Positions 11,405 to 61,846 of a stretch of DNA of 61,846 nucleotides are shown here, one piece after another (the stretch's first letter is position 1; each line of letters opens with the position of its first letter). A model generated the notes under the pieces. It searched no databases. It saw only the letters and a program-made list of their open reading frames with translations, and was not told where the DNA came from. The position numbers and the translations under genes were made by a program. The DNA is from a virus: positions 1-61,846 of the IMG/VR virus record IMGVR_UViG_3300033566_000071; one strand, given 5' to 3'.

Positions 11405-11446
11405 ATCGGCCCATTCCTTTGTGGAAATGTTTATATATTCATAGAA

Positions 11447-14502: not shown

Positions 14503-17500
14503 TCAGGCGATGCGGACTGCGTAGAAAATTGATGTACTTGCACCCGTAGCAGGAGCAGTTCCAGTAAACGCCGAGTTAGCAACCAGATATATTGTTGTAC
14601 CTGTAGTGCTAATATAGTACGGACAAGGACTTAAGTGCCTTCCGTTAGCAATACCAGAGGAGTTATCAACAGTGATATATTGATTGTCTAATGTCGCAGA
14701 CGTTGTAGAGATACCTGCAATACATTGAGTTTGAGTGGACCCCGCTGTACCGAAAGATACTTTCCCATAAACAACCCAAGTTCCAGCCGTTAGGACTAAA
14801 GACCCGGCGTTATAAGTGGTTCCTGAGGCTGTGAGGGTTACGTTACTAAGAGATGCTGTTAGTTTTTCCCCAACATACCCACTCGCAATAGCAGCACCAG
14901 TCGTCAAGCCCGGCGCACTGCCAGCCTTATACAACCCACTTGAGCCGTCAGTACCTGCGAGACCGAAGCCGACGGGGCTGGAGGGGTTAGCCTTCACTAG
15001 TCTATAGCGTGTGCCTGCTGTCATTGTCGCCCAAGTATCTACAGTCCCGCCGCGATACTTGCCTCTAATCACCCTCAAGTTGGTTGAGTTTATGTCTAAA
15101 CCAAGCCCAAAGAAGTTAGTGTTATCATTTCTAATGGCGTCTATTTCAAACGTCGGACAGGGTAACCAAGGACCCACACCACCAGCTTGAATTTCCAACC
15201 AAACTCTATCACCAACTTGTTGCGGGTACTGCCAAGCCGATGCGTAGGCTACGGAGACAATTTCAGATGAGCCTGCTGGGGTTGTGGTTGGTAGTGCAGT
15301 TCCTGCGGGGCTTCTGTCTGCTACCCAGCTTGAGAATCCTGAGCTTAAGTACTCAACTTGAGCACCCGCGCCTAAGTTCACAGTGCCGTTGCCAGCCCAT
15401 TCAGCGATGGGGACCATAAACGAGATTACAATTCTATCCGTGTTAGCAAATGTAATAGGGGCAGTCGCGGTAATAGCAAGTGGACTTACTGCAGTGGCTG
15501 TATCATCAATATAGCTAACGTCAATGGTTGTTGCAGAAGCTAAGCTTACCGCTCCCATGTAGGCAGCTGTTCCTGTATCGGAAATGCCGACATTGGAGTT
15601 TGGTAGTACATTGGCTCTAGCAAAAGTACTGTCTGGCAGAGCAGCGGTGTTGATGGTCCTACCACTAGGCAGTGTTAGGGTCAACGCAGTGGCGGTTGGA
15701 GCACCTGTCAAAGCTACCTTTATGTCGTATTTAGCCCAGCTGCCAATACGTGTCTCAAACGCGGTGTAGGTCGCGTTACTAACCCAAGTACCTGTGAAAG
15801 TAACAGCAACAGGGTCACTGACCGCCGCGCCTTGTGTGATGATGCCGTTACCGATGACGATGTTTGTGACGTAAAGGGTGTTGGCACTTGAGCGTGTTGT
15901 TTGCGTGAGAGAGACAGTGTAGGTGGCTCCGGTGTCGCCATCAAATGTACAATTAAACTGGCCAGTAAAGCCGGCCGGCAGCGTGGTTACTGACGAGCTA
16001 TCAGAGCTGAGAGAGACGCGCGTGCCGCCTGAATTATAGACAGACAGCCGCCAAACACCCAAACTAGATGCAGGGACAACAACGTACATAGATACTTGAA
16101 GCTTAGTGCTTCTAATTGCAGGAGGACACGCTAGCGCAGCCGCGTACACACCGCTTGTCGAAGTTTCACTGGAGGCTGTTGTAGTTGAGATGGCAAAGCA
16201 TGTATCTATGATGCCGGCCAAGGGGCTATTTGATGTGTCGCGTGAGACAGTGTAATTGGAAGCTGCAGTCCAGCCGGTTGTGGCAGAAGCCGCACTTGGG
16301 TTATCGACGATGTTGAGAGAGCCTGAGCCTGAGCCGCTACCTCCCACTTCGTTCAGATTCGTTCCATCATCCGAATAAAATTTGTCTGTGTCTGTGGCAT
16401 AGACTATCACACCCTCAACCCTTGTGAGAGCCGTAAGGTTGGCCAGTGTGTTAGAAGGAACAGTCCAGCGTGAGGTGTTGGAGGCCGTTCCACCTGCGAG
16501 GGTGGGGGTTGTCAATGTGGGCGAGGTTCCGAAGAGAAGTGAGCCGCTGCCGGATTCGTCGCTAATTACACCAGCAAGCTCTGCGGATGTTGTAGCGGCG
16601 AAAGCTGAAAGCTTATTGGCCGTATATGCAACCGTACCTCCGGCTCCGAAGGCTACAGAAGAGCTGTCCGTTCCAGTGAATGTCAATGTATTCGAGGCTG
16701 TGAGGGTTTTGCCATCAGCTATTGTGAGTGTGCTGCCTGTCGCAGGAGCTGTCAGTGTCAGCTTATTTATTGATGTCGCTGACGCAACGCCAAGTGTTGG
16801 TGTCACGAGAGTTGGGGACGTCGCAAAGACAAGAGCACCTGAGCCGGTCTCATCGGAGATTACGCTCGCGAGCTCGCTAGATGTGGTTGCTGCAAAAACA
16901 GAAAGCTTATTAGATGTATAGGTGACGGTGCCGCCTGCGCCGAACACAACAGAGGATCCGTCTGTGCCGGAAAATGTCAATGTATTCGAAGCCGTCAGAG
17001 TTTTACCATCGGCTATTGTTAGGGTTGAGCCTGTGGCCGGGGCCGTCAATGCAACCTTGTTTATCGATGTTGCGCTGGCTACGCCTAGCACGGGTGTCGT
17101 CAGTGTGGGCGAGGTGGCAAACACCAGGAGGCCCGATCCGGTTTCATCCGATATAACGGTAGCTAGCTCAGCTGATGTTGTGGAGGCGAACGCCGACAGC
17201 TTAGCCGAGAAGGTGGCAATAGTGGTGTCGGCGTCTGGCAGTGTGAATGTTCGGGTTGTGGCAGTAGAAATACCGCTTAGCTGAAAGCGGGCCTTCTTTG
17301 TACTATCCCCATCATCTTGCAAAATGAAGAGAGTGTCTTTGGCGGCATATGTATTTGTATTGTCTAAGGTTTTGTTAGACAAAGTTTGGGTAGAGGTTGT
17401 GTCGAGAAGTGTGGCTGTCGATGCCGGCAGTGTGATTGTTATGGCTCCAACATTCGCCCCTTGGATAATGGTGAGTTCGTTCGCCCCGCCCTTTCCTAGG

Positions 17501-17553
17501 GTGATGGAGGTGCCGGCTGTCTCAATATTTCCACGTTGGTCTTTTGTTGCCAT
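14503..17553 (-). CDS. Tail fibre protein
   Basis: 1016-aa ORF. It contains repeated SDETGSGxLVFATSPTLxTPxLG units typical of phage fibre shafts and a divergent C-terminal domain. Confidence 0.8.
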   Translation of the reverse strand: MATKDQRGNIETAGTSITLGKGGANELTIIQGANVGAITITLPASTATLLDTTSTQTLSNKTLDNTNTYAAKDTLFILQDDGDSTKKARFQLSGISTATTRTFTLPDADTTIATFSAKLSAFASTTSAELATVISDETGSGLLVFATSPTLTTPVLGVASATSINKVALTAPATGSTLTIADGKTLTASNTLTFSGTDGSSVVFGAGGTVTYTSNKLSVFAATTSSELASVISDETGSGALVFATSPTLVTPTLGVASATSINKLTLTAPATGSTLTIADGKTLTASNTLTFTGTDSSSVAFGAGGTVAYTANKLSAFAATTSAELAGVISDESGSGSLLFGTSPTLTTPTLAGGTASNTSRWTVPSNTLANLTALTRVEGVIVYATDTDKFYSDDGTNLNEVGGSGSGSGSLNIVDNPSAASATTGWTAASNYTVSRDTSNSPLAGIIDTCFAISTTTASSETSTSGVYAAALACPPAIRSTKLQVSMYVVVPASSLGVWRLSVYNSGGTRVSLSSDSSSVTTLPAGFTGQFNCTFDGDTGATYTVSLTQTTRSSANTLYVTNIVIGNGIITQGAAVSDPVAVTFTGTWVSNATYTAFETRIGSWAKYDIKVALTGAPTATALTLTLPSGRTINTAALPDSTFARANVLPNSNVGISDTGTAAYMGAVSLASATTIDVSYIDDTATAVSPLAITATAPITFANTDRIVISFMVPIAEWAGNGTVNLGAGAQVEYLSSGFSSWVADRSPAGTALPTTTPAGSSEIVSVAYASAWQYPQQVGDRVWLEIQAGGVGPWLPCPTFEIDAIRNDNTNFFGLGLDINSTNLRVIRGKYRGGTVDTWATMTAGTRYRLVKANPSSPVGFGLAGTDGSSGLYKAGSAPGLTTGAAIASGYVGEKLTASLSNVTLTASGTTYNAGSLVLTAGTWVVYGKVSFGTAGSTQTQCIAGISTTSATLDNQYITVDNSSGIANGRHLSPCPYYISTTGTTIYLVANSAFTGTAPATGASTSIFYAVRIA
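16492..17202 (-). repeat. In-frame tandem repeat inside the tail fibre gene (2 full 98-aa units plus a partial third)
   Basis: Unit KLSAFASTTSAELATVISDETGSG...GAGGTVTYTSN occupies residues 118-215 and 216-313. A partial copy follows to about residue 352. Confidence 0.85.
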
Positions 17554-21162: not shown

Positions 21163-21265
21163 GCCTTACGTTGGAGCAAGCTCGCGTGTGGCAGGTCATT
21201 GTGGGGCCCATAAGGGCCTTTACACATGAAAGAATCCATCCAGCCCAATGCCGGGTGAAGACGTA

Positions 21266-21291
21266 CGAAAACCTCATCCCGGAGAATGAGG
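21266..21291 (-). terminator. Terminator-like hairpin inside the noncoding island
   Basis: Minus strand reads CCTCAT-tctccggg-ATGAGG followed by TTTTCG. Confidence 0.4.
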
Positions 21292-21580
21292 CATCTGAAT
21301 TAATTGAGTTTTTCATTTGGAGGCAATTGTGGTGACAATAGGAGCAGAAGAGGAGACAGTGAGCCATCCTAGCTCTTTTCCATTTGGTTGGCCGGTTGGA
21401 TTCCGGCTGACTGCTGGCGGCTTTTGACCTTTTATTAACCAGCTTCTTTATGCACTCGTGTCATTGAAAGTGCTCGCCCAGCCGTAAGGAGGAGAGGTCG
21501 GTCATCGGGTAATGCTTCTGCACTCTGTGCTTTCTCGCCGTCCGAAGTTATCGCCTGATCCGGTGCCCTATGGCAAGTGT

Positions 21581-21609
21581 GTTATCTCCTGCCTAGGTAA
21601 TAATGTCAA
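21581..21609 (-). promoter_or_regulatory. Sigma70-like promoter candidate, TTGACA-N17-GATAAC
   Basis: Minus strand: TTGACA (21609..21604), a 17-nt spacer, then GATAAC (21586..21581). It lies 25 nt after the portal stop. Confidence 0.35.
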
Positions 21610-21633
21610 GCTTTTTCTTACGTGACGAAAACA

Positions 21634-23661: not shown

Positions 23662-23832
23662 TTAAAATCGAAAGATGCTTCCGTGTGTTTTCGAAGAGCG
23701 CTTTTCTGGCTCAGCCTTGTCGAGTATTCCCTTGCCGTGAAGGCGCGTGAACAGCACAAAAACGCCGGCAAGAGCCGCAACGCTAAATCCCAGTGAGAAC
23801 ATAGCTATTGTGTAGATTGGGCTTGTGTCCAT
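23662..23832 (-). CDS. Small transmembrane protein
   Basis: Start taken at the ATG overlapping the terL stop (TGATG). One TM helix, YTIAMFSLGFSVAALAGVFVLF. The ORF track's alternative start is 23868. Confidence 0.45.
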   Translation of the reverse strand: MDTSPIYTIAMFSLGFSVAALAGVFVLFTRLHGKGILDKAEPEKRSSKTHGSIFRF

Positions 23833-25367
23833 CAGAATGCTCTCCGTCCTGAATATTTGCGTCCCCAAATTTTGGATTTACGCTTCATGGCTTCTGCTAT
23901 TTTAATTGAGGCCTTACGCTCTTCTGCAAGCTGGCTTTGTTTCATCTCGTGATAGACGGATTCGTAGATGCGGGGCATCTCCTCATCCTTAGGCTTCTTC
24001 ATCCACAAATACCGCACAGTGTCCGCGCAATGGTATTTGTGCGAATTCACAATCTCTTTTTCTGTGGGCTTCCATTTAGCCTGAAGCATTTCCGTGTGAA
24101 GCGTTTCAGTTGCCTTGCCCTCTGCCATCATGAGAAGACCATTGTGCCATGCAACATTCACATTTTCAATTGATTCTAATTTCTTGGCCATTTTGTCAGT
24201 GATGGGCGAATAATCGATACCCTGCACCTGGGCCTCTTTATAAAACCCGCTGGGCGAGCTGTCACAAATGCGGCTACCCTTCGGAAGCCTGATGCCGGAT
24301 AGATGGCTCGTCTCTATCTCACGGACAAGAAGGCTAGCTGCGCTGCCGTCCATTGTGAGGGCCTTAACACACCACCAAGCCGGATGGGTAGGGCTCTTGC
24401 ACCAAAGCGTCACACCCACCTTTCCGCTCGCTGCAGGATCTACGACGACGGCGTGCTGAAGACTTGGTGCATAGGTGAAGGGAAGAGGGGCCCTGTTCTT
24501 ATAGGGATCATAGCCACGGAAGACGCGCTCGCTTGAAAAATACCAAGCGCCGTGTCGACGGGCCTGAAACTCCACCTCGTCCCCGCACTTGCTTCGAATC
24601 AAATCGTCAAGCTGCTCGACGGTCCAGCCTTCATAAATTGGATTGTCTTCGAGCCTAAGAATCCATTTTTTAAATGGAAACTGACATTCATCGACAAGCT
24701 GCTGGATTGCTGGGTTTTCTACGAGCGGTGTAAATGTTCCGTAAAAATAGCCGGATAGGGTCATCCCTGGCTCAATCTTCTTTGTGCTTGTGGCACTGAC
24801 GCGGAGAAGAAGTTCGGCCAAAAAGCTCTCGTCATCTGGCATCTCATCGAGCCACACCACATGTGCGGTGAAGCCCTGCACTTTTTCCCGTGCATTTTTG
24901 GCGTCGTGATGGGATAGGAAGAGGAGGCGGTTTCCGTTGGAAACATGCTCGACGCTTTTAATGAAGGCGCCTTCCTTCTGCGGATTGCGGAAGGAACCCG
25001 GAGGTAGAAGGGGCTTGAGCTTATTCGCCCAGAGCTCTTCTGTTATGAGCTGGCCAGTGCGGCCGGCCACGATGATGAGGAGGGGTTGGTCTGCCCACTC
25101 AGGCAGGCGCTTTTTGAATGGATGAGTTCCCAAAAACCACCACGCCACTTCTCTTGCGCCAGTTGAGGTTTTCGAAGAGCGGTTGGCCCCAATAATCCAA
25201 TGGCCCCTATGCTCGGTATCCATTATGATTTTTCTGGCATTTCCTCTTGGGCGAGAATCGAGGTCTCCTGCGACAAAGCACGACAAAAGCTTATCACTGC
25301 TCTCTGCCCTCAGTTTGGCATAGGCAAGACGCTTTTTGTCCGTGGAGTTGCCGGAGACATTACTCAT
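23832..25367 (-). CDS. terL: Terminase large subunit
   Basis: Walker A-like IIGANRSSKTSTGA, Walker B HVVWLDEMPDD, and nuclease-type acidic motifs AVVVDPAASG and CADTVRY. 511 aa. Confidence 0.9.
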   Translation of the reverse strand: MSNVSGNSTDKKRLAYAKLRAESSDKLLSCFVAGDLDSRPRGNARKIIMDTEHRGHWIIGANRSSKTSTGAREVAWWFLGTHPFKKRLPEWADQPLLIIVAGRTGQLITEELWANKLKPLLPPGSFRNPQKEGAFIKSVEHVSNGNRLLFLSHHDAKNAREKVQGFTAHVVWLDEMPDDESFLAELLLRVSATSTKKIEPGMTLSGYFYGTFTPLVENPAIQQLVDECQFPFKKWILRLEDNPIYEGWTVEQLDDLIRSKCGDEVEFQARRHGAWYFSSERVFRGYDPYKNRAPLPFTYAPSLQHAVVVDPAASGKVGVTLWCKSPTHPAWWCVKALTMDGSAASLLVREIETSHLSGIRLPKGSRICDSSPSGFYKEAQVQGIDYSPITDKMAKKLESIENVNVAWHNGLLMMAEGKATETLHTEMLQAKWKPTEKEIVNSHKYHCADTVRYLWMKKPKDEEMPRIYESVYHEMKQSQLAEERKASIKIAEAMKRKSKIWGRKYSGRRAF

Positions 25368-27152: not shown

Positions 27153-27409
27153 CAGGGGTTACAATGACAAGCATTGTGTGCTACCGCACGGCGTCGAAGG
27201 CGAAGCTACCGATAGGGAGGTTCTGCCTTCCGGTAAGAAAGCTCGGGGCCTGCGGCTGCTTTCCCTCGCTTTATGACGAACAGTAAGAATTGAGCCAAGA
27301 AACGGGATGACAGAAAGGGGTCTAGGAGCTTCTAGAAATAAAAGGATGAGTCTAGCTATTGGCCAAAATTGCGTCGATTCTAGGCCATTTGTGCAATTCG
27401 CCCATAAAG

Positions 27410-27640
27410 CTAATAATAGCAGTGACATGCAGCGCCACGCTTCTGCTCTCTTGTAATAATTCTATTGAGAATAGCACCCATCCTCACTATGAGCTCTTTC
27501 CTTCGCAAAACGAAATGCCGCATTTGCCCTACAATCGATGAAACCGCTCCGTCCTTGGCAATGCCCTTTCCGGCGAAATCGATTTTAAGGGCCTTTTCAG
27601 AGGCGTTCTTACATTCGTAGTAAGAATTAAAGTTTCTCAC
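27410..27640 (-). CDS. Possible small basic protein (regulator candidate), GTG start
   Basis: 76-aa ORF with gene-like codon choice and a possible HTH-like stretch, GIAKDGAVSSIVGQMRH. I found no RBS. Confidence 0.3.
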   Translation of the reverse strand: MRNFNSYYECKNASEKALKIDFAGKGIAKDGAVSSIVGQMRHFVLRRKELIVRMGAILNRIITREQKRGAACHCYY

Positions 27641-38629: not shown

Positions 38630-38992
38630 ATGTTAGACACCAATCAAATCGTCACCATCATTCAGCAAACTGGCGGCACCATCTCTACCCTAATCTCGCA
38701 GGTGGCATATTTTTTTGCAATACAGCAAGCAGCCGCGTGGCTGTCCTTCACCTTTCCCTGTCTCCTTTTATTCAGTGTTCTCCTAAAAATTGCCAAGACG
38801 CAAAAGGCTCTGGGCGATGTAGACAAAACGGGCTATACGGCTCTTTTTGCGTGGCTTTTATTCAGTGTGGCCCTCTACACTGGCGTAAGGGGGATGGCGC
38901 ATGTGGCGCAGGCCGCATTCAGCCCAGCCATTTATGTGGCTAGTGAAATTGGTGGTATTGACGCTTTGCTGCGCTCGGTGGAGAAAAAATGA
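38630..38992 (+). CDS. Membrane protein (2-3 TM)
   Basis: AAGGAG RBS. TM segments AAAWLSFTFPCLLLFSVLLKIA and YTALFAWLLFSVALYTGV. Confidence 0.6.
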   Translation: MLDTNQIVTIIQQTGGTISTLISQVAYFFAIQQAAAWLSFTFPCLLLFSVLLKIAKTQKALGDVDKTGYTALFAWLLFSVALYTGVRGMAHVAQAAFSPAIYVASEIGGIDALLRSVEKK

Positions 38993-39156
38993 AAGAGGCT
39001 GAATGGTTTGTGCTGACATATTGCGGTCTAGGTGTCCTTGCCATCGTGTATATAGTGTGGCAACATCACATGGACGTAGCCAAAAGGGATGGACTTCCCT
39101 TCCCCTTTTCCAAACTCAAACGAAAGCTGACAAGCTTTCTTTCTAGGAGCATATAA
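38989..39156 (+). CDS. Small N-terminal-TM protein (55 aa)
   Basis: Hand-translated: MKEAEWFVLTYCGLGVLAIVYIVWQHH... ATGA overlap upstream and TAATG overlap downstream. Confidence 0.4.
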   Translation: MKEAEWFVLTYCGLGVLAIVYIVWQHHMDVAKRDGLPFPFSKLKRKLTSFLSRSI

Positions 39157-39438: not shown

Positions 39439-40560
39439 ATGGCTAAGGCTCCTGTGAAAAAACGCGCCCCGGCAAAAGGAAGAGCTAAAGAAGTTAAGCC
39501 TAAAACTGCCAAACGTGTTGAAAAGCGCGGAGAGCCTAGGCCCTTTTCCATCACTCAGCTTCTGGATAAAGGCATTGAGCAGCATGTCCTCAATCATGCC
39601 CGCCGCTCAATTGAAACAATGCACACCCTGCGCGGCGGATCCGCTGGCGCTATAATGGATGACGGCACCCAGTTTGGATGTGTCAGAAAAGCCGCCCTCC
39701 GTTATCACGGCTATGACCTTCCAATCGACGCCCGCACCCAAATTCTAATGGGATTTGGCATCTCGAACGAGGACGTGCTCGACAAGTATATTTCCCTATC
39801 GGGATGGCCCAAAGACCGTATTAAGCGAGAAGAAGAAATTCCGGTGTCATACGAAATCGGGTCCCCTTCTTCCACAGATATGGAAAAAGACCGGATGGAG
39901 AGGGTTACGGGCAGGCCGGATATGATTTTGTTGGATGCCAGTGGGCATCCTTATTGGGGCATTGAGATGAAGCTCAAAGGCACCGTCTATGGAGCCAAAA
40001 ACATCCTCATCAACAGCAAAGTCGATAGTGCTCACATCATCCAATCGATGCACTACATGTGGAAACATAATCTGACGCGCTATTCGATTGTCTACAGCAT
40101 TCCTGTGCGCTTTGCCATTCAAGGGGCAGACGCAGAGGCCTTTGCTGCCCTAAATTTGGCTGAGCTAAAAGCCGATGGTACCCCTAGCTATGCGAAGCTG
40201 GGTTTCTACGAGACAATATTCGAATGGGACAAAGAAGCGGATACGCTTCAGTGTTATACTGTGCACAGTGGAGTAGAACGACGCGATATTCCGCTACGTA
40301 TTGGGCACATCGAAGATTTCTATAAGCTTGTCTCTCAAGTGGCCCATAGGGAGACAATGGGTGGACGTCCCACAAAGAGATCCATTCTTCCGAACTCCTT
40401 CGAATGGAATCTTTGTGATATGTGTGAGCTCAAGGATGTATGTAATAACTACGAGCACGACATTGATGCTTGGTGGGACTGGGCAATCGAAAAAATATCG
40501 AGCGAATGGCTGAGGCTTTGGCCCAATTTACATAAGGACTTTCTCAATGACTTCGAATGA
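39439..40560 (+). CDS. PD-(D/E)XK nuclease, Cas4/RecB-like, with Fe-S-type cysteines
   Basis: Motifs GRPDMILLD...WGIEMKLKG and QSMHYMW. An N-terminal Cys (FGCVRK) plus the C-terminal CDMCELKDVC match the C...CxxCx5C pattern of Cas4/AddB nucleases. Confidence 0.75.
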   Translation: MAKAPVKKRAPAKGRAKEVKPKTAKRVEKRGEPRPFSITQLLDKGIEQHVLNHARRSIETMHTLRGGSAGAIMDDGTQFGCVRKAALRYHGYDLPIDARTQILMGFGISNEDVLDKYISLSGWPKDRIKREEEIPVSYEIGSPSSTDMEKDRMERVTGRPDMILLDASGHPYWGIEMKLKGTVYGAKNILINSKVDSAHIIQSMHYMWKHNLTRYSIVYSIPVRFAIQGADAEAFAALNLAELKADGTPSYAKLGFYETIFEWDKEADTLQCYTVHSGVERRDIPLRIGHIEDFYKLVSQVAHRETMGGRPTKRSILPNSFEWNLCDMCELKDVCNNYEHDIDAWWDWAIEKISSEWLRLWPNLHKDFLNDFE

Positions 40561-40759
40561 GACAATAAAAAGAGTAATAATCAATTATGTGAGCAGTGAT
40601 GATAAGTATTTCGTGGTAGTCAATGATAGGTTGGTAGGCAGTTCTACGTCGTTCGACTTGGCTATGTACATGGCCAATCAGGTAATTGACAAACTGCTTC
40701 GCCGTGAGGTAGAATTAGGCTATTCCCAATCAACCTTCTATCTAGGCGGGTGCGTATGA
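40547..40759 (+). CDS. Hypothetical protein
   Basis: 70-aa ORF overlapping the nuclease gene's 3' end. Confidence 0.5.
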   Translation: MTSNETIKRVIINYVSSDDKYFVVVNDRLVGSSTSFDLAMYMANQVIDKLLRREVELGYSQSTFYLGGCV

Positions 40760-41358
40760 AATTTCTCTTGACAATGGCAATGTTTCTATGCTCCTGCGTA
40801 TTTGCTGCTGGCAATAAAACCCCAATCCCCCCAGCAGCTACGCTCGAAATTGTGGGCGATGTGAATGGGTTGATGAGTATGCTTTTTCTGGTTAAGAGCA
40901 ATGAGCTAGCGCTCCTTCCAGTTAAAGCCATTCCTAGCAACGTGGTGCAAATTAACATTGCATCTAGGGGCGGGGAAGTGGAGGCCATGAAGCAAATTTT
41001 GGAGCGCATGAAGCTGCTCAAAACATATGGCTATGTCTTCTCGTGCACGGCCACAATTGCCTATTCGGCCGCGTTCATGATTTGGGAAGAATGTGATAGC
41101 AGGCTGGCCTATAGGCTCTCAAGCCTGCTTTTCCATCGCCCATACATCTCGTTCGCCCGTAACATCACTAGCAAAGATGCTAGGGAAATGGCAGACGGGC
41201 TTGAAAAGGACGACGTTGTCTTCATCAAAATGCTCATGGAAGGCGTGGGCAAATTCATGCCCGAGGTCGACGTCATAAAGCACATGGACGCAGAAACATT
41301 CTGGACAGGTGAGACGCTTTGTAAGCAGGCCCCAGGATTTTGCTACCTCCTAAATTGA
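40756..41358 (+). CDS. Exported (lipoprotein-type signal) ClpP/S14-S49-like serine protease
   Basis: ATGA-coupled start. Signal peptide MKFLLTMAMFLCSCVFAAG. ClpP-like blocks INIASRGGEV, TIAYSAAFMIW (Ser) and SLLFHRP (His). Confidence 0.6.
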   Translation: MKFLLTMAMFLCSCVFAAGNKTPIPPAATLEIVGDVNGLMSMLFLVKSNELALLPVKAIPSNVVQINIASRGGEVEAMKQILERMKLLKTYGYVFSCTATIAYSAAFMIWEECDSRLAYRLSSLLFHRPYISFARNITSKDAREMADGLEKDDVVFIKMLMEGVGKFMPEVDVIKHMDAETFWTGETLCKQAPGFCYLLN

Positions 41359-41553: not shown

Positions 41554-42174
41554 ATGGCATTCGGACAGAAAAGCAACAGTTTCGCAAAGAAGCCTGCAGC
41601 CGCTGGCAAAAAGAAATACGATCAGCCCGCGTTCTTTATGAACCCAGAGCAAGGCCAATATGGCCCTATGTATGTGGGCGAGTATAATGGAGTTAAGGCT
41701 ACGCTAGCCGAGACGAAAGATGGCGGCAAATTCAAATTCACATTCACCGATGCAAATGGCTCTCCTGCCTTTTCGATAGGTAAGGTGAAGGAAAACAACT
41801 ACGGAGCTTTCATTCCATTCTCCATCGATGGGACGTGGTGGTATGCCACAACTAAAACCAACGCCAAAGGCAATTATGTCCTTGTCAAAAGCACCGGGCG
41901 TGCTGTAGAGCCTCGCGAATATGTCGAAGCAGAGCTTCTCCAGGCCCCAGAAATTGCCGATGTGGACGCCAACGGCCATCCGATTGACGAAGGCACCACT
42001 GAAATTCCAGAAGAAGCGTTTAAAGCGGCAGCAGCCAAGCCAGCCGTGAAGCCAGCTATCGGCAAGCCTGCCGCGAAGCCTGCCTTCGGTGCTAAGGCAG
42101 CAGCTGCAGCGCCAGCTTCAGCCGGCAAGCCAAAGCGCGCGCAGCCAAAGAATTTAGACGATATTCCGTTCTAA
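41554..42174 (+). CDS. ssb: Single-stranded DNA-binding protein (non-canonical N-terminal domain)
   Basis: C-terminal PKNLDDIPF tail, the hallmark SSB acidic tip, preceded by an A/K/P-rich linker. AAGGAA RBS. Confidence 0.7.
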   Translation: MAFGQKSNSFAKKPAAAGKKKYDQPAFFMNPEQGQYGPMYVGEYNGVKATLAETKDGGKFKFTFTDANGSPAFSIGKVKENNYGAFIPFSIDGTWWYATTKTNAKGNYVLVKSTGRAVEPREYVEAELLQAPEIADVDANGHPIDEGTTEIPEEAFKAAAAKPAVKPAIGKPAAKPAFGAKAAAAAPASAGKPKRAQPKNLDDIPF

Positions 42175-42211
42175 GGAACGGGTTCTTTTTGCGAGTTTGG
42201 TCAATTTGTTT

Positions 42212-42278: not shown

Positions 42279-42725
42279 GTGGCCTATAACAAAAACACCA
42301 AGAGCCCTGCGAAAAATAGCGACGTTCCTGTGTTCACAGAAATTAGCGGCCTCGGACAGCTGAAAGCCGGCTCATATGTGGGCAAGGTGGCGTCCATCTA
42401 TAGAGGCGAAATTCAATTTGATGTCCTGCCAATTGGCTTTCATTGCGAGCGCCTTTCCATTCCAGAGCTAGAGGTGGGCGATGAGGTTGGGTTCGTTATT
42501 GGAGTTGACAAGAGGGGCCTTGCTGTGCGAAAAAATCGCAAGGGAGAATATGCACTTGTCCACCCTCATGAGCGCGACACTCCGGTGACAGGATGGCTCC
42601 CTTCTATAACGCAGCTTGTCGCATCCATTCCAGAGAGCGCAGCGTTAACCTCGCCCATAATTGCTTCTGTCACAAAGGATGGGGCTGTTCTCTACACGAA
42701 CGAAAACGCATACGTCGGAGCATAA
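42279..42725 (+). CDS. Hypothetical protein (GTG start)
   Basis: 148-aa ORF. An AGGAGG RBS lies 6 nt upstream of the GTG. Confidence 0.55.
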   Translation: MAYNKNTKSPAKNSDVPVFTEISGLGQLKAGSYVGKVASIYRGEIQFDVLPIGFHCERLSIPELEVGDEVGFVIGVDKRGLAVRKNRKGEYALVHPHERDTPVTGWLPSITQLVASIPESAALTSPIIASVTKDGAVLYTNENAYVGA

Positions 42726-42727
42726 GA

Positions 42728-45049
42728 ATGTCGAATTCGCAAGAATTAATTTCTCCGTACACATGGCTTGGCGTAGCCCCCACTCCGATCCCAAAGGAGC
42801 ATCTCAACCTCGAAGGAGGCGCGGCCCTCCTCTCCTACCTATCAACCCTCCCCGAGGGCAGCCTCCTCCATTTCGACTTTGAAACGAATGGCCTCAAGTA
42901 TTGGGCCAGAGACTTCCGTATTGTGGGCCTAGGGCTCTGGCATGTGGGCGAGGAATATCCCGCCTACCTAAGGCTCGACACTATTGTGGGCGACAAAACC
43001 AAAGCCCTCTGGCTTGTGCAGCTACTCTCGCAATATCGGTTAAGCGCCTACAACCTTGTCTTCGATGGAGGGTGTTTCTTTGCCCTCAACCGCACTTTAG
43101 GCAAAAAATCGCTACCTGATAGCGAAATATTAGATTGCTTGACGGCTTGCCCCCTCACCCTTTTTCGTATGCTGGCCAATGAAGGTAAGCAATCTCATAG
43201 CCTTGAAACCGCACAGAAGAATTTCTTTGGCTGGGACGATAGCCAAAAGGGTTGGCTCAAGGAGCTCCTCGCTTCAAACAACTTATCTAAGGGCGAAATG
43301 TGGAAGCTCCAAGATATTGATCCAAATGGCTTTGCCTACTATTGCGCAGTTGATAGTTATGCCTGCGGGAAGGTGTGGCAGCATCTTGTCAGCGAATGCC
43401 AGCGCATCAATAACCTCGGGCCAGTGAAGTTTCACATGAGAGAGGGTGTCGCCCAAATAAGGGAGCTCATTGAGGCGGCCTACACAGGCATACGGGTGAA
43501 TGTGGATAAGCTCCGGGTGTTCATGCTCGCCCAATTCAAGGAAACGGCACGGCTCGAAGAGCAGCTCCGAACCCATCCTATGATTGCTCACCACATAGCC
43601 GGCTGGGAAAAGAGGGCCTGGGACGAGACATTTGTCGTTCGCATCACGGAGCGTAAAAAGGTTTATAAGGATAGTGAAATTGTCAAGGCCCTTTTGACAA
43701 AAGCCAAGGCCGACACATCCCTTCTGCCTGACATTTTGGAGATTGAAGAGGAAATAGAAGAGAGCTATAAGGGCCGCACACAGGCTACACCGATTCATAT
43801 TGATGGAGACAACCTAATCAATCGGAGCTATTCTCTGCTCCTTGAAGGCAGTAATAAAAAGCCGCCCCGCTTTAATCTAGCTTCGAGCGCACAGCGCGAG
43901 TGGCTCTTTTATACGGCCATGGGATCGGCAGAGCGCATCATAGATGAATTCGAAAGGGACGTGTACAAATACACCATGAACGACGGGCGAATTGTCTACC
44001 TACCTCCGACAAAAAAGGGCAATAAACCCACCGGAAAAGAAATCTTTCCTGTCCTGGGCGAGCTCGGGGATGTCTTTAAGAAATACAAAAAAGCCCAAAA
44101 GCTTGTCGAATATGCCGTATCATATTATGCGGCTGCCCTTGAGCACAAAGACGGAAAGAGCCACGGCATCATCCATCCGACATTTAGCCCCAATGGTACA
44201 CACACAGGGCGCCTCTCTGCAAATGGTGGCATAAACGCAGCCCAGCTGCCAAAGGTGGAGGCGTTTCTCGAATGCTTTGAAGCCTTTCCTGGCAAAATAT
44301 TTTATGATTTCGATTTCACGGCGCTCGAGAAAGTGGTGCAGGCAGAATTTAGCAAGTGCCCTGCTCTGAGAAGTCTGTATGCTTCTGGGAAAACGCATGA
44401 TGTGCATTTATTCAATACTAAATCCATTCATCCAGATCCAGAAATAAGAAGTCAGATAGAACAAGCTTATACCCCAGATAAAGAAGTTTTGGATAAGCTA
44501 GCTAAACAATTCAAAGCGGCTCGTACTCTTGGTAAAGGGGTCGGATTTTCCCTAGACTATGGAGCTGGTAAATATAAAATATTTCGCTCACTCACCAATC
44601 AAGGATTTCCTGTCACCTATAGCGATGTTGAGCAGATGGTTGATGCGTATAAAACACTCTACAAGGCCGTCTATAAATTCGGCTATGATTTGCAGAGAGA
44701 GTGGGACAACAACGGCGGCGTCATTGAAAACGGCCTAGGATTTCCCATCAGCATTCCAGAGCGCTATAAACACGACACAAATTCGCGCTTCGTTCAGAAT
44801 ACGGGACATTACATGCTCATGATTGCCAACTACTATATTTGGAAAATGCGTCAAGAGAATAATATAGAACGCCCAGTAATTCCAGATTTGCATGATGAGC
44901 GTATCGGAGAAGGATTGCCTGAAGACGCTGAGCGTATTATGGCTATGTATCAAAAGGGTGTGGATATGCTGAACGAACAGCTACAGCCAGAAATTCCTTT
45001 CACAATTAGCTTCGCATCGGGGCCTACCCTGTGGCACATAAAAAAATAG
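42728..45049 (+). CDS. polA: Family A DNA polymerase with 3'-5' exonuclease domain
   Basis: Exo motifs FDFETNGL, NLVFDGG and YYCAVDSY. Pol motif A DFDFTALEKVV, motif B RTLGKGVGFSLDYGAG and motif C PDLHDE. Start set at MSNSQEL, directly after the upstream stop. Confidence 0.92.
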   Translation: MSNSQELISPYTWLGVAPTPIPKEHLNLEGGAALLSYLSTLPEGSLLHFDFETNGLKYWARDFRIVGLGLWHVGEEYPAYLRLDTIVGDKTKALWLVQLLSQYRLSAYNLVFDGGCFFALNRTLGKKSLPDSEILDCLTACPLTLFRMLANEGKQSHSLETAQKNFFGWDDSQKGWLKELLASNNLSKGEMWKLQDIDPNGFAYYCAVDSYACGKVWQHLVSECQRINNLGPVKFHMREGVAQIRELIEAAYTGIRVNVDKLRVFMLAQFKETARLEEQLRTHPMIAHHIAGWEKRAWDETFVVRITERKKVYKDSEIVKALLTKAKADTSLLPDILEIEEEIEESYKGRTQATPIHIDGDNLINRSYSLLLEGSNKKPPRFNLASSAQREWLFYTAMGSAERIIDEFERDVYKYTMNDGRIVYLPPTKKGNKPTGKEIFPVLGELGDVFKKYKKAQKLVEYAVSYYAAALEHKDGKSHGIIHPTFSPNGTHTGRLSANGGINAAQLPKVEAFLECFEAFPGKIFYDFDFTALEKVVQAEFSKCPALRSLYASGKTHDVHLFNTKSIHPDPEIRSQIEQAYTPDKEVLDKLAKQFKAARTLGKGVGFSLDYGAGKYKIFRSLTNQGFPVTYSDVEQMVDAYKTLYKAVYKFGYDLQREWDNNGGVIENGLGFPISIPERYKHDTNSRFVQNTGHYMLMIANYYIWKMRQENNIERPVIPDLHDERIGEGLPEDAERIMAMYQKGVDMLNEQLQPEIPFTISFASGPTLWHIKK

Positions 45050-56363: not shown

Positions 56364-56744
56364 ATGGAAAAGAAGTTTAAAATTTTGGTGTGCGGCGGTA
56401 GAAACTATAGAGACTGGGACACACTTGTCGCCCAGCTAGACACTCTACAACCCATCTCTTGCATTGTAAACGGAGGGGCTGGAGGAGCAGACGAGATGGC
56501 CGCTGATTATGCCCATGAGCGCAGTATCATGTGCTACACTCACCATGCCAAATGGAGTGAGTATGGAAGGCGAGCCGGCCCAGTGAGAAACAGACAAATG
56601 CTCGATTTACATCCAGACCTCGATATGGTTGTGGCCTTTCCTGGCGGAAAGGGGACAGCGGATATGGTTAAGGCCGCTGACGAAAGGAAGATTTTAGTCT
56701 GGGACCTAAGGGTAGAAAACTCGCCCGCCAACACGAAGACGTGA
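56364..56744 (+). CDS. SLOG-superfamily protein (DUF2493-like)
   Basis: Motifs ILVCGGRNY, VNGGAGGADEMAADYA, GPVRNRQML and FPGGKGTADMV. The family name is from memory. Confidence 0.65.
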   Translation: MEKKFKILVCGGRNYRDWDTLVAQLDTLQPISCIVNGGAGGADEMAADYAHERSIMCYTHHAKWSEYGRRAGPVRNRQMLDLHPDLDMVVAFPGGKGTADMVKAADERKILVWDLRVENSPANTKT

Positions 56745-57053
56745 ATCAATATGGATCCATGTCTTCGTCGCAGATGGGTGTTCCATCCAAATATTGAAGC
56801 GCTCTAAATTGTCTTGAATGAATTTCAAAAGTTCTGGCGTTCTCACCAAATCAGCAGCTACACCATCAACATGGGCACTACGTTTGGCCCCGCCTATGGA
56901 TTGATTGTGGCGCTTACAGCGAGCTGCAGAGGAAAGGGAAATGGGCTGGCCATAGGCCTCTCTAATTTCATTCAAAAGCTTTTTGAATTCCGGCCTCACC
57001 GAATAACCGCACCCGCACGAGCACTCAAGCTCTTTGTCCGAAAAGTAGTTCAT
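56706..57053 (-). CDS. Endolysin, peptidase M15 (M15A/M15_3-type) family
   Basis: Motifs FSDKELECSCGCG, SSAARCKRHNQSIGGAKRSAHVDGVAADL and WIHIDSR. No signal peptide. Confidence 0.85.
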   Translation of the reverse strand: MNYFSDKELECSCGCGYSVRPEFKKLLNEIREAYGQPISLSSAARCKRHNQSIGGAKRSAHVDGVAADLVRTPELLKFIQDNLERFNIWMEHPSATKTWIHIDSRLRVGGRVFYP

Positions 57054-57646: not shown

Positions 57647-60600
57647 CTATTCGTCCTTATTTAGGTGAAGCTTATTGTAAGCTCTTTGCATTATTGTCTC
57701 TTTTCCAAAAGCCCTCTGAAACTTCTGAACTTCGTTTATGACAGGAGCCACAATAGGAGTGTAGGAGGTGGCTGCGGCTGAAATGGCATTTCTGGCAGAG
57801 CCCTTCAGGCGGTCCTTTACACTTAGGTCACTAGATGTAAGAGGCGCTAGTGTTTTTCCAATTGTGTCCACAAGGGGGTTGGAAGCGAGGCTACGCCCTT
57901 GGCTTTGCTTTGGAAGAATGGAGGCAATTGGAGCGAATTCTTCTGGCTTTCCAATGAGGTACTGGACGAGAGGGTTTTGGTGCTCCTCCATCCAGGCCGA
58001 GGCTCCAGCTAGCATGAGGTAGGCAGCAAAATATTTACGTAAAACTTGTGCCGATCCAGATTTCATTCCCTGCTCACGGTAGGTGTTGGCAACATCGGCG
58101 GCAATATTTATGGGCCATGTCGTGAACATACTGAAGGCCGGGCCCACGGCTCTTTGCATTTCTGATTGCGCAGCCTTGCCGAAGTCGAACTGGGTTTTTG
58201 ATATTAGGTAACGGCCTATAGCGTCGCCCATATTCTCAGCAGCCGATTCGCCTTTTCCCTCAAGCATCGCCCTCTTAACCACACTCTTGAGCCCTGCATC
58301 AGCCTTTTTCATAAACTTGGCCGCATCTGGATTACCAGCCAAAAGATCTTTGGCAATTTGCTGGCCCATCTTATAGCTGATTATGCGGTTGACAGTGTCG
58401 GAGGCTCCATAAAATGTCATCATCTTTTCATTCATAGCATCAGTGTAATGCTTAGCCCTGCCCACACCTGTGGCCGTGTTCTCGAGCTCTCCTTTGAAGA
58501 ATTCAGAGGCTAGGTTTTTTGAGGCCAAAAAGCTTTTGAGCTTCCCAGGATTTGCTGCAGACAATTTAATTGTATCGAGGCCTGAGGATACAGCCAGCCT
58601 ACTTCCATAAATCCCTCCCACTTCAGGTGCGGTGCTCATGAGAAACTGAGTATAGTTTCTAATCATACCGGGCACATTGAATGCCAGCTTTGCAGGATAG
58701 ATTTGATTGTTGAGCCAAGCCGCAAATTCAGGAAGCTCTGCTACGGCTTTTCCCGCAGTTCGTCCAAATATATTCATCGTTGTGTCTCGGGCCATCTTTG
58801 TGCCCTTATATTCCATCTGATTGCGTAGGTTTTTCATGGCCCCGTCCAGGCCCCATTTATTACCCATGTTGTCGGCTAGGTAGCGTTTGAAGAATTGGGA
58901 TGCCTTTGGCATGCCGCCCACCTCAAGAGCCCTCACCATTGTCTGGCCATATTTCAGAGCGTCGTCATACATAGCTGCACGAACGTTTTCGTTGACATAG
59001 CCTGACAAAAGCTCCCAGGCATTGCGCTCCTGAATTCGCCCAGCTATTTCACCCTTCCGAGCGAAGAGGGCAGATATGTCTTTATCAAGCTCCTCTGTAG
59101 ATCCAATCTGCCCTTTGCTAGAAAGGAGTGCGGTTTTGAGTTTGGCGATGTCCCCGCCTTCTTTAATTGGCTGCCCTATCCTTCTTTGGGCGAGAGAATC
59201 GAGAAGGTCAAGATGGGACGCGGAAACGCTATCTGGCTTCAGCCGAATATCATCTATAGTGCGAAGGCCCTCTTTGGCCATTGATTGCTTCAGTTCATCT
59301 GTAATATCATCCACTTCAACAGCCAACTTAACAGCATTCTTGGCCTTATGGGGCATATAATCAAGGCGCCGCTCTGGACTGTAGCCAAGCTCCTTCAGAA
59401 ATCCAAATAGCTTGTCTGTATGCTTAACCACATCCTGGCGCAGCACATCAATATTGGCCTGCCCGTGCTTTGCAATAGCTTTTGTGAGCCCTTCCGTTGG
59501 CTTTCTCTCAATCAAAGCGAAAACGTCTTCACCGGAAAGGCCAAGCTTGTCGGCGGCCCTCCTCACCTTATAGAGGTCTTGGGCGAATGTATTGGAAACA
59601 TTGGAGAAGGCATGGCGGGTTTGATTCATCTTGTCATAGAGCTGACCCACTTCAAGCCCCGTGGCCCCGTCCACCGCACGGGCGACATAGAGGGTGGGAT
59701 TAAGCCACTGGTCGGCTTTTGTAATGTCTTTAAGAGTGGGAGCACTTGAAATGCCTTTGTTAAGGGCGGCTGTATCTTCCTCTACAATACGTGTTAAAAC
59801 GCCCTGCGTTTTGAACATGGCATAGGTGTCATCCAGCTTTTCGGGTGTTAGCTTAGAGGCAGCAGAATTGAATGCATCATCAAGCTGCTTACCGTCGAGC
59901 TGAGCTTTTGCGTCAGCCAAAACATAACGCTTGAATTCACTAGGCACTTTGTCCGCTTCGCGCGGCATATGAAGGTCTTCGTCCTTGAGGGCTGCCATAG
60001 CCTTTGACATATATCCACGGCTATTGTCGGCCAAAGCTTCCCCTATATTCTCCGCAGACTCGCCCACAAGGCTCTCGGCAATTTTACCTTTCCCAGCAAC
60101 ACGGCTTGCAATGCTGGCCGCGCCGAGCGTAGCGAAGACCCCTGCCATTGCTACAGACTTTTTATCCCCGCCATGAAGGGCTTCAGTGAGGGCTTCCCCT
60201 CCAACCTGGGCTGCCCCGCGGATGATGGCAGCCGGCATAGATGAGGCTTTGATGAGCGGATTGAGCTCTGTTCCAATTGTGAGGGCCGCAGTGGCAATTC
60301 CTTTTCCAGAAATGGGATCCCACTCTTCACCAGCTTCTTGGCTCCTAAGTCTATCTCGCCCTAGGCCAGCATAAACGGCATAAAGGGCTGGACCGATTGT
60401 CGCTAGAGCTCTCACAGTACCGGCCCCTGCTCCGAGCGCTGTACCAAGTCCTGGTATAACGCTACCGGCTGCAGAGCCTGCAGTAAATCCAGCACCTAAA
60501 TTACTGACAATATATCCGGCTAATGCTGCATTACTGTGCCCGAGTGCCTTTGTGCGGTCATCGGCTGACATGGAAAAAGGTGCGATGGCCTCTTGTGCAC

Positions 60601-60844
60601 CTGCCTTCGATCCTTCTTTAAAGGCCTGGAAGGTGGAGCGCTCGTCCTCGACTTCAGGAGAAGACATTTGCCCGTTCTCATCGAAATCTGGGATTTGGAC
60701 GCCTTCAACAATAGGCGAAACGGGCGTCACTTCAGTGGTGTTAGCTTCTGGCGTCCCACTTTCATCGCCCACAATGTCAGGCACCTCAACGCCTTGGATG
60801 ATGGAGCTAATTGGTTCTTCTTCGTCGTTTGAAAAAACGCCCAT
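57647..60844 (-). CDS. Large (1065 aa) internal virion/ejection protein candidate
   Basis: Acidic repeated N-terminus followed by Gly-zipper hydrophobic segments (NLGAGFTAGSAAGSVIPGLGTALGAGAGTV, VAMAGVFATLGAASIASRVAG), then a long helical body. It is the last virion gene before the lysis genes. Confidence 0.5.
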   Translation of the reverse strand: MGVFSNDEEEPISSIIQGVEVPDIVGDESGTPEANTTEVTPVSPIVEGVQIPDFDENGQMSSPEVEDERSTFQAFKEGSKAGAQEAIAPFSMSADDRTKALGHSNAALAGYIVSNLGAGFTAGSAAGSVIPGLGTALGAGAGTVRALATIGPALYAVYAGLGRDRLRSQEAGEEWDPISGKGIATAALTIGTELNPLIKASSMPAAIIRGAAQVGGEALTEALHGGDKKSVAMAGVFATLGAASIASRVAGKGKIAESLVGESAENIGEALADNSRGYMSKAMAALKDEDLHMPREADKVPSEFKRYVLADAKAQLDGKQLDDAFNSAASKLTPEKLDDTYAMFKTQGVLTRIVEEDTAALNKGISSAPTLKDITKADQWLNPTLYVARAVDGATGLEVGQLYDKMNQTRHAFSNVSNTFAQDLYKVRRAADKLGLSGEDVFALIERKPTEGLTKAIAKHGQANIDVLRQDVVKHTDKLFGFLKELGYSPERRLDYMPHKAKNAVKLAVEVDDITDELKQSMAKEGLRTIDDIRLKPDSVSASHLDLLDSLAQRRIGQPIKEGGDIAKLKTALLSSKGQIGSTEELDKDISALFARKGEIAGRIQERNAWELLSGYVNENVRAAMYDDALKYGQTMVRALEVGGMPKASQFFKRYLADNMGNKWGLDGAMKNLRNQMEYKGTKMARDTTMNIFGRTAGKAVAELPEFAAWLNNQIYPAKLAFNVPGMIRNYTQFLMSTAPEVGGIYGSRLAVSSGLDTIKLSAANPGKLKSFLASKNLASEFFKGELENTATGVGRAKHYTDAMNEKMMTFYGASDTVNRIISYKMGQQIAKDLLAGNPDAAKFMKKADAGLKSVVKRAMLEGKGESAAENMGDAIGRYLISKTQFDFGKAAQSEMQRAVGPAFSMFTTWPINIAADVANTYREQGMKSGSAQVLRKYFAAYLMLAGASAWMEEHQNPLVQYLIGKPEEFAPIASILPKQSQGRSLASNPLVDTIGKTLAPLTSSDLSVKDRLKGSARNAISAAATSYTPIVAPVINEVQKFQRAFGKETIMQRAYNKLHLNKDE

Positions 60845-60862: not shown

Positions 60863-61846
60863 TTATTTCTTAATTGTGGTGAAGGATTGCTGCAATATTT
60901 TGGCATAATCGGAGCGAGCCTTTGCATCGGCATCCCGTATTGATTTGCCTTGCTTCATATACTCAGCTGTCTTGGCACGGATGAATGTCCCTTGATTTTC
61001 GAGCACATCTCTAACTTGAGGGAATTGCTTGAGGGCTTCAATGTTCTTTTGCTGCTTTACGCCAGCCTTAACCACATCATCATAATCAGGGCCAGAGAAC
61101 ACACCTTGCCCGGCTTCCTGGTAGATTTTCGGACTCGCAACCATTCCGTAGCCACGCGCCTGCGCAATTTGAGCATCAAGCATCTGAAGCTTACCTACGG
61201 CCTCAGCCCTAGCATCATTGCCCTTTAGCCTACTAATCGCACCTGCGGTGCTCTGCCAAGCGGCAATGTTTTTATCAAGTTCAGATTCACGCTCTTTGGC
61301 CAAGCTTTCGACAGCGTCCTTACCGCCGCCGGCAGCACGCTCAGCGCGGGCCAGCATTTCATCATTCCACTTCATAAGGCTATCTTGATAGGTGCGCTCC
61401 TGCTGCTCATAATCTGTCTTATACCTAAGGCGCTGCCCCTCGTTCTGCCACTTTCTATAGGCCATTTCATACATGGCATTACGCTCTTGCTTCGATTCGC
61501 CCAGACGCTGCCGCTCTTTATTGAGCGCATCCATATCAACGCCATAGGCTTCTTTGGCTGCAGCAAGTGTGTTCGAGAGGTCACGCTGCACTTCGTTAAG
61601 CTTTTGGCTCCAGTCGGTGGTGTTGAATTTCACGCCACTGAGGTCCTGGCCAGACTGAAGGCCAATTGCACCGGCAGCTATAAGGCCAACAGCATTGACG
61701 ATTTTTTCTGTCAATTCCTTTTTAGCCACATTATCCGTCGCCACTTTATTGATGGCCATTAGGTCATCGATTTGCTGCTTGACGGCAGAAGCTTTAGCTT
61801 CAACCTTTTGCTGATTGCGATCCATCCCAGCTGAAATGTCACTATA
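60863..61846 (-). CDS. 3' half of the junction-spanning late gene (continues from 916..1)
   Basis: The ORF-track ATG at 61825 is an internal Met. The frame stays open to the window end (61846) and is in phase with 127..916. Confidence 0.8.
   Translation of the reverse strand, partial: YSDISAGMDRNQQKVEAKASAVKQQIDDLMAINKVATDNVAKKELTEKIVNAVGLIAAGAIGLQSGQDLSGVKFNTTDWSQKLNEVQRDLSNTLAAAKEAYGVDMDALNKERQRLGESKQERNAMYEMAYRKWQNEGQRLRYKTDYEQQERTYQDSLMKWNDEMLARAERAAGGGKDAVESLAKERESELDKNIAAWQSTAGAISRLKGNDARAEAVGKLQMLDAQIAQARGYGMVASPKIYQEAGQGVFSGPDYDDVVKAGVKQQKNIEALKQFPQVRDVLENQGTFIRAKTAEYMKQGKSIRDADAKARSDYAKILQQSFTTIKK
61720..61846. repeat. Terminal direct repeat, exact copy of 1..127
   Basis: Same as above. 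Unique genome length is therefore 61,719 bp. Confidence 0.97.

Follow-up and report, generated by a model that had tools for sequence, protein, structure and literature searches.

We describe here a putative exported peptidase of the ClpP fold, encoded in a stretch of viral DNA of 61,846 nucleotides (IMG/VR record IMGVR_UViG_3300033566_000071, positions 1 to 61,846; the whole stretch is referred to as the window). The open reading frame (ORF) at 40756-41358 on the plus strand, correctly delimited in a first-pass annotation made from the letters alone, lies among replication genes and codes for a protein of 200 amino acids. That this product has the ClpP fold together with the catalytic residues of ClpP is hardly in doubt. 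With less assurance, we also consider it likely that it works as an extracytoplasmic peptidase rather than as a prohead protease. By its sequence it is a member of a large, phage-specific branch of putatively exported ClpPs devoid of the N-terminal gate, a branch that is currently mis-annotated and apparently undescribed.

The first-pass annotation had recognized ClpP by eye and named profile comparison, AlphaFold and Foldseek as checks; all of them led to ClpPs of peptidase family S14. The Pfam model PF00574 (CLP_protease) matches the protein with 28 bits against a gathering cut-off of 20.2 (E=2.4e-6), and 69 of 70 family members match it as well. Aligned with E. coli ClpP, the family profile reaches an hhalign probability of 98.4%, and with solved ClpPs the E values go down to 7e-20. 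Structure prediction by AlphaFold from the single sequence gave a predicted local distance difference test score (pLDDT) of 38, whereas with an alignment of 70 homologous sequences the pLDDT rose to 93.4, with a predicted template modeling score (pTM) of 0.84. When the latter model was compared with the PDB by Foldseek, the top matches were all ClpP (for example 8yd0_K, 6hwn_A and 5g1r_E), with E values around 1e-11, template modeling (TM) scores of 0.71-0.82 and a root-mean-square deviation of 2.6 A over about 175 columns. The long handle helix of ClpP is kept in the model (H139-162). A match to a "control protein" in PADLOC was discarded as being at chance level; it echoes a weak match to C-protein in the PDB.

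Three short segments had originally been paired with ClpP motifs, and profile-profile alignment with E. coli ClpP proved each pairing correct. INIASRGGEV, which contains the SRGG sequence with Gly72-Gly73, falls on INSPGGVI with its SPGG oxyanion motif; AYS104AAF falls on AAS97MGA and LLFH127RP on VMIH122QP. In the same alignment Glu180 stands opposite Asp171. A Ser-His-acid triad is present at the canonical ClpP positions, with a conservative change of Asp to Glu. Loss of catalytic residues in a proper alignment was looked for over the top 150 homologues, from which all column statistics were taken (Table 1), and both Ser104 and His127 are kept in every one of them.

The second feature of the protein is its N-terminus. 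The sequence is consistent with the hydrophobic export signal proposed at first reading. Nowhere is the protein more hydrophobic than in the segment MKFLLTMAMFLCSCVFAAG (Kyte-Doolittle 2.3 over 15 amino acids), and no other plus-strand ORF between 26900 and 57650 has a hydrophobic segment that lies so near residue 1 and scores so high. A putative site of signal peptidase I (SPase I), with Ala at -3 and Gly at -1, follows this segment. When the N-termini of the 150 closest homologues were read and scored, 136 of them showed a hydrophobic h-region that begins no later than residue 20. Usually, Lys or Arg stands before this region and an AXA-like end after it. The other 14 are, by appearance, mostly fragments or proteins with mis-called starts. 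The possibility of a true start downstream of the hydrophobic segment did not gain support. A Shine-Dalgarno-like (SD-like) motif precedes the ATG at 40756, this ATG shares the sequence ATGA (40756-40759) with the TGA of an upstream ORF of 70 amino acids, and the homologues align from their own hydrophobic N-termini, all of which favor this start. Internal Met7 and Met9 fall within the hydrophobic segment, and an alternative GTG two codons 5' of the ATG is an unlikely start, being too near the ribosome-binding motif.

The further claim that the signal is of lipoprotein type is uncertain. The lipobox-like LCSC meets the relaxed PROSITE pattern PS51257 and a Cys is aligned with Cys14 in five of six close relatives; on the other hand, LCSC fails the classical pattern [LVI][ASTVI][GAS]C, its Cys at position 14 comes earlier than is usual for lipoproteins (~15-35), and lipobox-like motifs occur in only 18 of the 136 signal-bearing members of the wider family. 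Lipid anchoring at Cys14 and cleavage by SPase I appear equally plausible from the motif.

The signal peptide stands in the place of another element. In profile alignments the match sets in only at ClpP residue ~24 (solved chains) or 36 (E. coli precursor), and the AlphaFold model shows a signal helix at residues 3-11, a coil at 12-27 and the first strand from residue 28 on. Nothing in the protein corresponds to the N-terminal loops or to helix A of ClpP. In ClpP, the N-terminal motif gates or plugs the axial pore and engages ClpX; gate-opening mutants and acyldepsipeptides (ADEPs), by which the N-terminal loops are re-ordered or removed, admit unfolded substrates without any ATPase (reviewed in PMC9035409). 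These observations bear directly on the idea that the protein is a cytoplasmic ClpP paralogue, its N-terminus being no export signal, which hijacks or poisons ClpX or ClpA of the host. The names would suit such a paralogue, as both Pfam and NCBIfam annotate a Clp protease and the relatives, where annotated in source databases, are called "ATP-dependent protease ClpP protease subunit". However, the very motif for ClpX interaction and gating is absent, the n-h-c architecture of a signal is conserved family-wide, the cysteine pairs described below are invariant or co-varying, and one related phage, L002, has a separate signal-less Clp besides its exported copy. We consider this explanation to be highly improbable.

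The cysteines are the third feature. Cys97 is found in 149 and Cys113 in all of the 150 homologues, and neither of them stands opposite a Cys in the alignment with E. coli ClpP. Cys189 and Cys196 co-vary, and after residue 25 the number of cysteines is even in 128 of the 150 proteins. Conserved and co-varying pairs of this kind are typical of extracytoplasmic proteins. The pattern suggests that Cys97-Cys113 and Cys189-Cys196 form structural disulfides, and an invariant pair together with a co-varying one would point to an oxidizing, extracytoplasmic location.

An exhaustive HMMER search of 1.84 billion representatives brought 408 proteins at E<=1e-3, each standing for a cluster at 50% identity, with P0002 (42% identity) and P0003 (33%) as the best relatives; a word-indexed protein search returned the query alone. 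In the profile search, members of the family score at least 179 bits and ordinary ClpPs at most 70, and this drop marks the family as a discrete clade. All the contexts retrieved are phage-like contigs of no more than 63 kb. Searching 50,697 GenBank phage records by tblastn with the query and with a typical member, P0006, revealed no member of the family, the matches being confined to the catalytic core of ordinary prohead proteases. As for close relatives of the phage itself among isolated phages, megablast of the 6-kb neighborhood and tblastn of the portal found no match, and the DNA polymerase gave weak partial matches only (~25% identity). Pattern scans of IMG/VR with the ClpP-like protein and with the nuclease encoded beside it had no match, and a scan with the subfamily alignment had two partial ones. 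In GTDB (185,579 species genomes), a first pattern scan found nothing and a second one three short contigs of metagenome-assembled genomes, which are probably binned phage DNA; because the patterns were narrow, absence from bacteria is only weakly shown by these scans. A whole family has dropped the ClpP gate and gained a secretion signal and cysteines of disulfide type, and it is known only from metagenomic phage contigs. The first-pass annotation knew of no described function for an exported phage enzyme with the ClpP fold, and no relevant description of a phage ClpP that is exported, periplasmic or secreted emerged from our search of the literature either, most subscription journals lying outside its coverage.

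Several observations weigh against an exported peptidase. Firstly, the h-region plus Cys14 would make a very short lipoprotein signal. Secondly, the position of Glu180 is occupied by Ser in the four closest relatives, where an acidic residue lies one or two positions away, so that the third member of the triad is not strictly fixed. Thirdly, a search of all six frames shows no second ClpP-like ORF, and the gene is the sole protease-like one of an apparently complete genome, which leaves room for a role in morphogenesis. The completeness is suggested by an exact direct terminal repeat of 127 bp (positions 1-127 and 61720-61846), a typical mark of circular assemblies, so that the window probably comprises a whole phage genome of about 61.7 kb. 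In this light, the protein might be a displaced prohead (capsid maturation) protease whose hydrophobic N-terminus is incidental or removed. Its best neighbors in PHROG and NCBIfam do include ClpP-related head maturation proteases, and most ClpP-like proteins of phages in GenBank are prohead proteases. Yet the NCBIfam model of ClpP-related head maturation proteases (NF045542) scores the protein with 32.8 bits against a cut-off of 120. The gene does not lie between portal and major capsid protein, but inside the replication operon, on the strand opposite to the head module and about 20 kb away from it, and this placement is kept in related phages. A signal peptide shared by 136 of 150 homologues and conserved or co-varying cysteines would be pointless in a capsid, and phage L002 with its two Clp proteins argues in the same direction. 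We therefore regard a displaced prohead protease as very unlikely.

The slot between portal and capsid genes, where a prohead protease would be expected, had been called empty in the first-pass annotation. The gap is real: 470 nt at 21163-21633 (minus-strand context) hold no credible ORF. It carries no weight as evidence of a missing protease, because the portal is P22-like (Pfam PF16510, E=2e-20) and a scaffold-like gene follows the gap. Phages of the P22 type assemble with a recyclable scaffold and without a protease, and the portal together with a separate scaffold-like protein implies protease-free assembly here as well. The scaffold-like protein (386 amino acids) is rich in Glu, Lys and Ala and has the coiled-coil look typical of scaffolds; the protein of 467 amino acids encoded beyond it had no database match. 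A TTGACA hexamer is located in the gap just past the portal stop codon, and Rfam found no match anywhere in the window, the gap included. The gap may hold a late promoter, a leader or an RNA of new type.

We continue to prefer an exported peptidase. The location of the gene between a nuclease and ssb, among replication genes, was noted at first reading and is confirmed. The ATGA overlap on one side and the following gene, which begins 7 nt past the stop codon, on the other mean that the gene is embedded in a tightly packed, co-oriented operon. In every related locus with DNA polymerase A (PolA), the ClpP-like gene is found amid replication genes. The contig of 63 kb that encodes P0002 (L001) is syntenic with the window over MazG, nuclease, ClpP-like protein, SSB-like protein, PolA and helicase. 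Other loci are L002 (P0010; with PolA and HNH), a 28-kb contig (P0006; with SLT and DUF932) and the phage-like contigs L005 (P0004), L012 (P0016) and L013 (P0005). L016 (P0160) represents a different type of phage, with SLT, ThyX and a response regulator, and its ClpP-like gene lies amid other non-structural genes. L002 (57 kb) is the locus with two Clp proteins: a family member of 250 amino acids with the export signal (1218-1970) and a signal-less protein of 197 amino acids with a Ser/His/Asp triad (10866-11459).

The Cas4-like nuclease of the window has a C-terminal CxxCx5C cluster and a Lys-rich N-terminus. A survey by local tblastn, which drew on loci L001-L006 and L011-L014 plus the window, found such a nuclease next to the ClpP-like gene in all eight distinct loci with enough flank, in an order that is sometimes reversed. 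For this pairing, a functional link and a shared module are both possible. On the other side of the ClpP-like gene lies the SSB-like protein of 206 amino acids. Its acidic DDIPF tip is typical of bacterial SSB, and it also has a linker rich in Ala, Lys and Pro; it matches nothing in Pfam or PHROG and is probably a very divergent SSB. The sigma-70-like promoter match sits inside the upstream ORF, with an estimated chance occurrence of ~0.1 in the scanned region. Together with the terminator-like hairpin, and as consensus matches only, it may delimit a sub-operon of three genes (ClpP-like, orf58 and SSB). The ORF of PolA as listed (42593-45049) overlaps the preceding gene by 130 nt; its start is more likely the ATG at 42728, since the alignment with relatives begins there. 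Several small membrane proteins are encoded near the ClpP-like gene, at 38630-39156.

A possible course of events is as follows. Synthesis of the peptidase would coincide with expression of the replication genes, its translation being coupled to that of the ORF upstream. Its signal peptide of 19 residues would direct it through the Sec pathway across the inner membrane, where it would be either released by SPase I or anchored by a lipid at Cys14. Folding would be accompanied by formation of one or two disulfides, Cys97-Cys113 and Cys189-Cys196. Catalysis would rely on the ClpP core with its handle helix, on the oxyanion glycines and on the triad Ser104-His127-Glu180, the parts that close the pore and dock ClpX or ClpA being gone. 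The result would be an ungated, self-compartmentalizing peptidase that cuts polypeptides, unfolded or extended ones, in a periplasm or envelope devoid of ATP. Truncation of the N-terminus of ClpP likewise opens access to unfolded substrates without the ATPase, and a ClpP that is naturally without this segment would suit a compartment where ATP is lacking.

As for its role, we infer that remodeling or protection of the envelope of the infected cell is the most likely one; expression at an early or middle stage, along with replication genes, would be in keeping with such a role. Candidates within it are superinfection exclusion through destruction of the envelope-spanning proteins of other phages, clearing of the phage's own spent ejection proteins, and destruction of host receptors or sensors, no single one of which can claim more than a low probability. 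The receptor or defence-protein targets suggested in the first-pass annotation are accordingly a matter of speculation. One may imagine, as a doubtful extension, a phage-specific class of permanently open periplasmic ClpP rings that serve as an early weapon in the envelope and shred unfolded proteins crossing the periplasm, be they ejection proteins or channels of competing phages, host receptors, or sensors of envelope stress or defence. If this is true, it would be a protease-based superinfection exclusion or counter-defence of a sort not described before, and the pairing with the nuclease might represent a two-compartment module against competitors, with the protease outside the cytoplasm and the nuclease inside.

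Table 1. Features of the window around the ClpP-like gene, and selected genes elsewhere in it. Homologue counts refer to the top 150 homologues.
Feature	Position	Strand	Remarks
Cas4-like PD-(D/E)XK nuclease	39439..40560	+	adjoins the ClpP-like gene in each of the 8 distinct related loci
Sigma-70-like promoter (TTGACA, 18 nt, TAGAAT; 11/12)	40686..40715	+	40 nt 5' of the start; consensus match only
Translation start region	40744..40759	+	SD-like AGGCGGG at 40744-50, 5 nt before ATG; ATGA overlap; read from sequence
ClpP-like peptidase, coding sequence	40756..41358	+	200 aa plus stop
Putative signal peptide, residues 1-19	40756..40812	+	n-region MK, h-region FLLTMAMFLCSCVF, c-region AAG; cleavage AAG/NK predicted by the -3/-1 rule
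Lipobox-like LCSC, residues 11-14	40786..40797	+	possible alternative signal peptidase II site before Cys14; non-canonical
Gly72-Gly73, equivalent of the SPGG oxyanion hole	40969..40974	+	148/150; gap in the other two
Cys97, proposed disulfide partner of Cys113	41044..41046	+	pair in 149/150; disulfide predicted
Ser104, nucleophile (= ClpP Ser97)	41065..41067	+	150/150
Cys113	41092..41094	+	150/150
His127, base (= ClpP His122)	41134..41136	+	150/150
Glu180, aligned with ClpP Asp171	41293..41295	+	Glu 136/150, Asp 3/150
Cys189 to Cys196, second pair	41320..41343	+	co-varying: 18 both, 119 neither, 4 single
SSB-like protein, C-terminal DDIPF	41554..42174	+	downstream neighbor of the ClpP-like gene
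Terminator-like hairpin with T-run	42165..42182	+	exactly at the SSB stop codon
Large terminase	23832-25367	-	head module
860-aa protein	2908-5490	-	no PHROG match
1851-aa protein	5849-11404	-	no PHROG match
1016-aa protein	14503-17553	-	PHROG match: virion structural protein
1065-aa protein	57647-60844	-	no PHROG match

The phage is probably podovirus-like, to judge from its P22-like portal and from the fact that no tape-measure protein of a tail was identified. The four very large proteins encoded on the minus strand (Table 1) are candidates for a function in ejection, in an internal core or in the tail, and their lineage is without isolated relative. An ORF of 60 amino acids at 27359-27541, in which a hydrophobic stretch ends in lipobox-like LLLSC, is a candidate small phage lipoprotein of the exclusion or spanin type. 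At the end of the plus-strand block, on the minus strand (56706-57053), a peptidase-type endolysin of 115 amino acids is encoded (PHROG 894, E=3e-22). Spanin or holin genes were not identified in the window.

Among known systems, the NfeD or STOPP proteases that are paired with stomatin (Band_7) resemble the ClpP-like protein in their fold, which is of the ClpP class, and in the extracytoplasmic location that is predicted for it. A stomatin-like Band_7/SPFH protein is encoded at 3157-3927 in L001, the closest related phage. An NfeD-like role, raised at first reading and considered again on account of this protein, was rejected. NfeD proteases use a Ser-Lys dyad, and Pfam finds only CLP_protease in our protein, with no NfeD C-terminal domain. 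No Band_7 protein is among the ten larger replication-module proteins of the window scanned with Pfam, a set that leaves out small ORFs and some structural-module proteins, and the Band_7 gene of L001 is located about 6 kb upstream of the ClpP-like gene.

SppA and SohB (MEROPS S49) are the closest functional analogues: they share the fold of the ClpP/crotonase superfamily, face the periplasm, are independent of ATP and act on peptides or unfolded chains. The protein could accordingly be a membrane-tethered housekeeping peptidase of SppA/SohB type, its N-terminus being an uncleaved signal anchor or a lipid anchor, that clears signal peptides and misfolded exported proteins on behalf of the phage's holin, spanin or exclusion proteins, or for the timing of lysis. 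Apart from the common fold superfamily and the predicted extracytoplasmic, ATP-free setting, this would agree with weak matches of 25 of 70 family members to SppA_dom, with the lipobox-like Cys shared by close relatives and with the small membrane proteins encoded nearby. S49 enzymes, however, are larger proteins with tandem domains and a membrane anchor and work with a Ser-Lys dyad, whereas the ClpP-like protein is a single domain of 180 amino acids with an invariant His127 and a triad acid. The query itself matches no SppA model, the best solved relatives are all ClpPs of S14, most family members have classic cleavable signals of the AXA type, and a need for clearance of signal peptides is hard to see in a lytic phage. 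The SppA-like role put forward at first reading is therefore not supported as membership of S49, and a housekeeping peptidase of this type seems to us unlikely, if less so than the prohead and cytoplasmic explanations.

With the head maturation proteases of phages (NF045542; PHROG 1684/94), the exported peptidase proposed here has in common the origin from a phage, the ClpP fold and the predicted independence of an ATPase, and its PHROG matches reach E values of ~1e-8. Examples are ORF7 of Xanthomonas phage CP1 and gp3 of Clostridium phage phiCDHM11; the CP1 protein, which appeared as a Foldseek match in BFVD, was set aside as an ordinary prohead protease encoded between portal and head protein. 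The differences are those of position and of N-terminus: these proteases are encoded between portal and major capsid protein and are without signal peptides, whereas the ClpP-like gene belongs to a replication module, and in its product both the signal peptide and the cysteine pairs are conserved.

ClpP is the textbook case of a cytoplasmic protease gated by an ATPase, and its phage relatives are known as capsid maturation enzymes. If the family described here is exported and active, it adds a periplasmic protease to the tools that phages use against the host envelope, and it offers a natural route to an ATP-independent ClpP, analogous to gate-opening mutants and activation by ADEPs. It would also correct a systematic mislabel, "ATP-dependent Clp protease proteolytic subunit" or, by default, "head maturation protease". 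With cellular ClpP (MEROPS S14, PF00574; for example E. coli ClpP and M. tuberculosis ClpP1P2), the protein shares the core fold, the SPGG motif, the positions of Ser and His, an acidic third residue and the handle helix. It differs in being encoded by a phage, with an identity of only ~18-20%, in having Glu for Asp in the triad and cysteine pairs specific to its family, and in carrying a signal peptide instead of the N-terminal gating loops and helix A. The predicted extracytoplasmic location would leave it without an ATPase partner. Taken together, by sequence and fold the protein belongs to the S14/ClpP family and departs from it in the N-terminal gate and ATPase interface.

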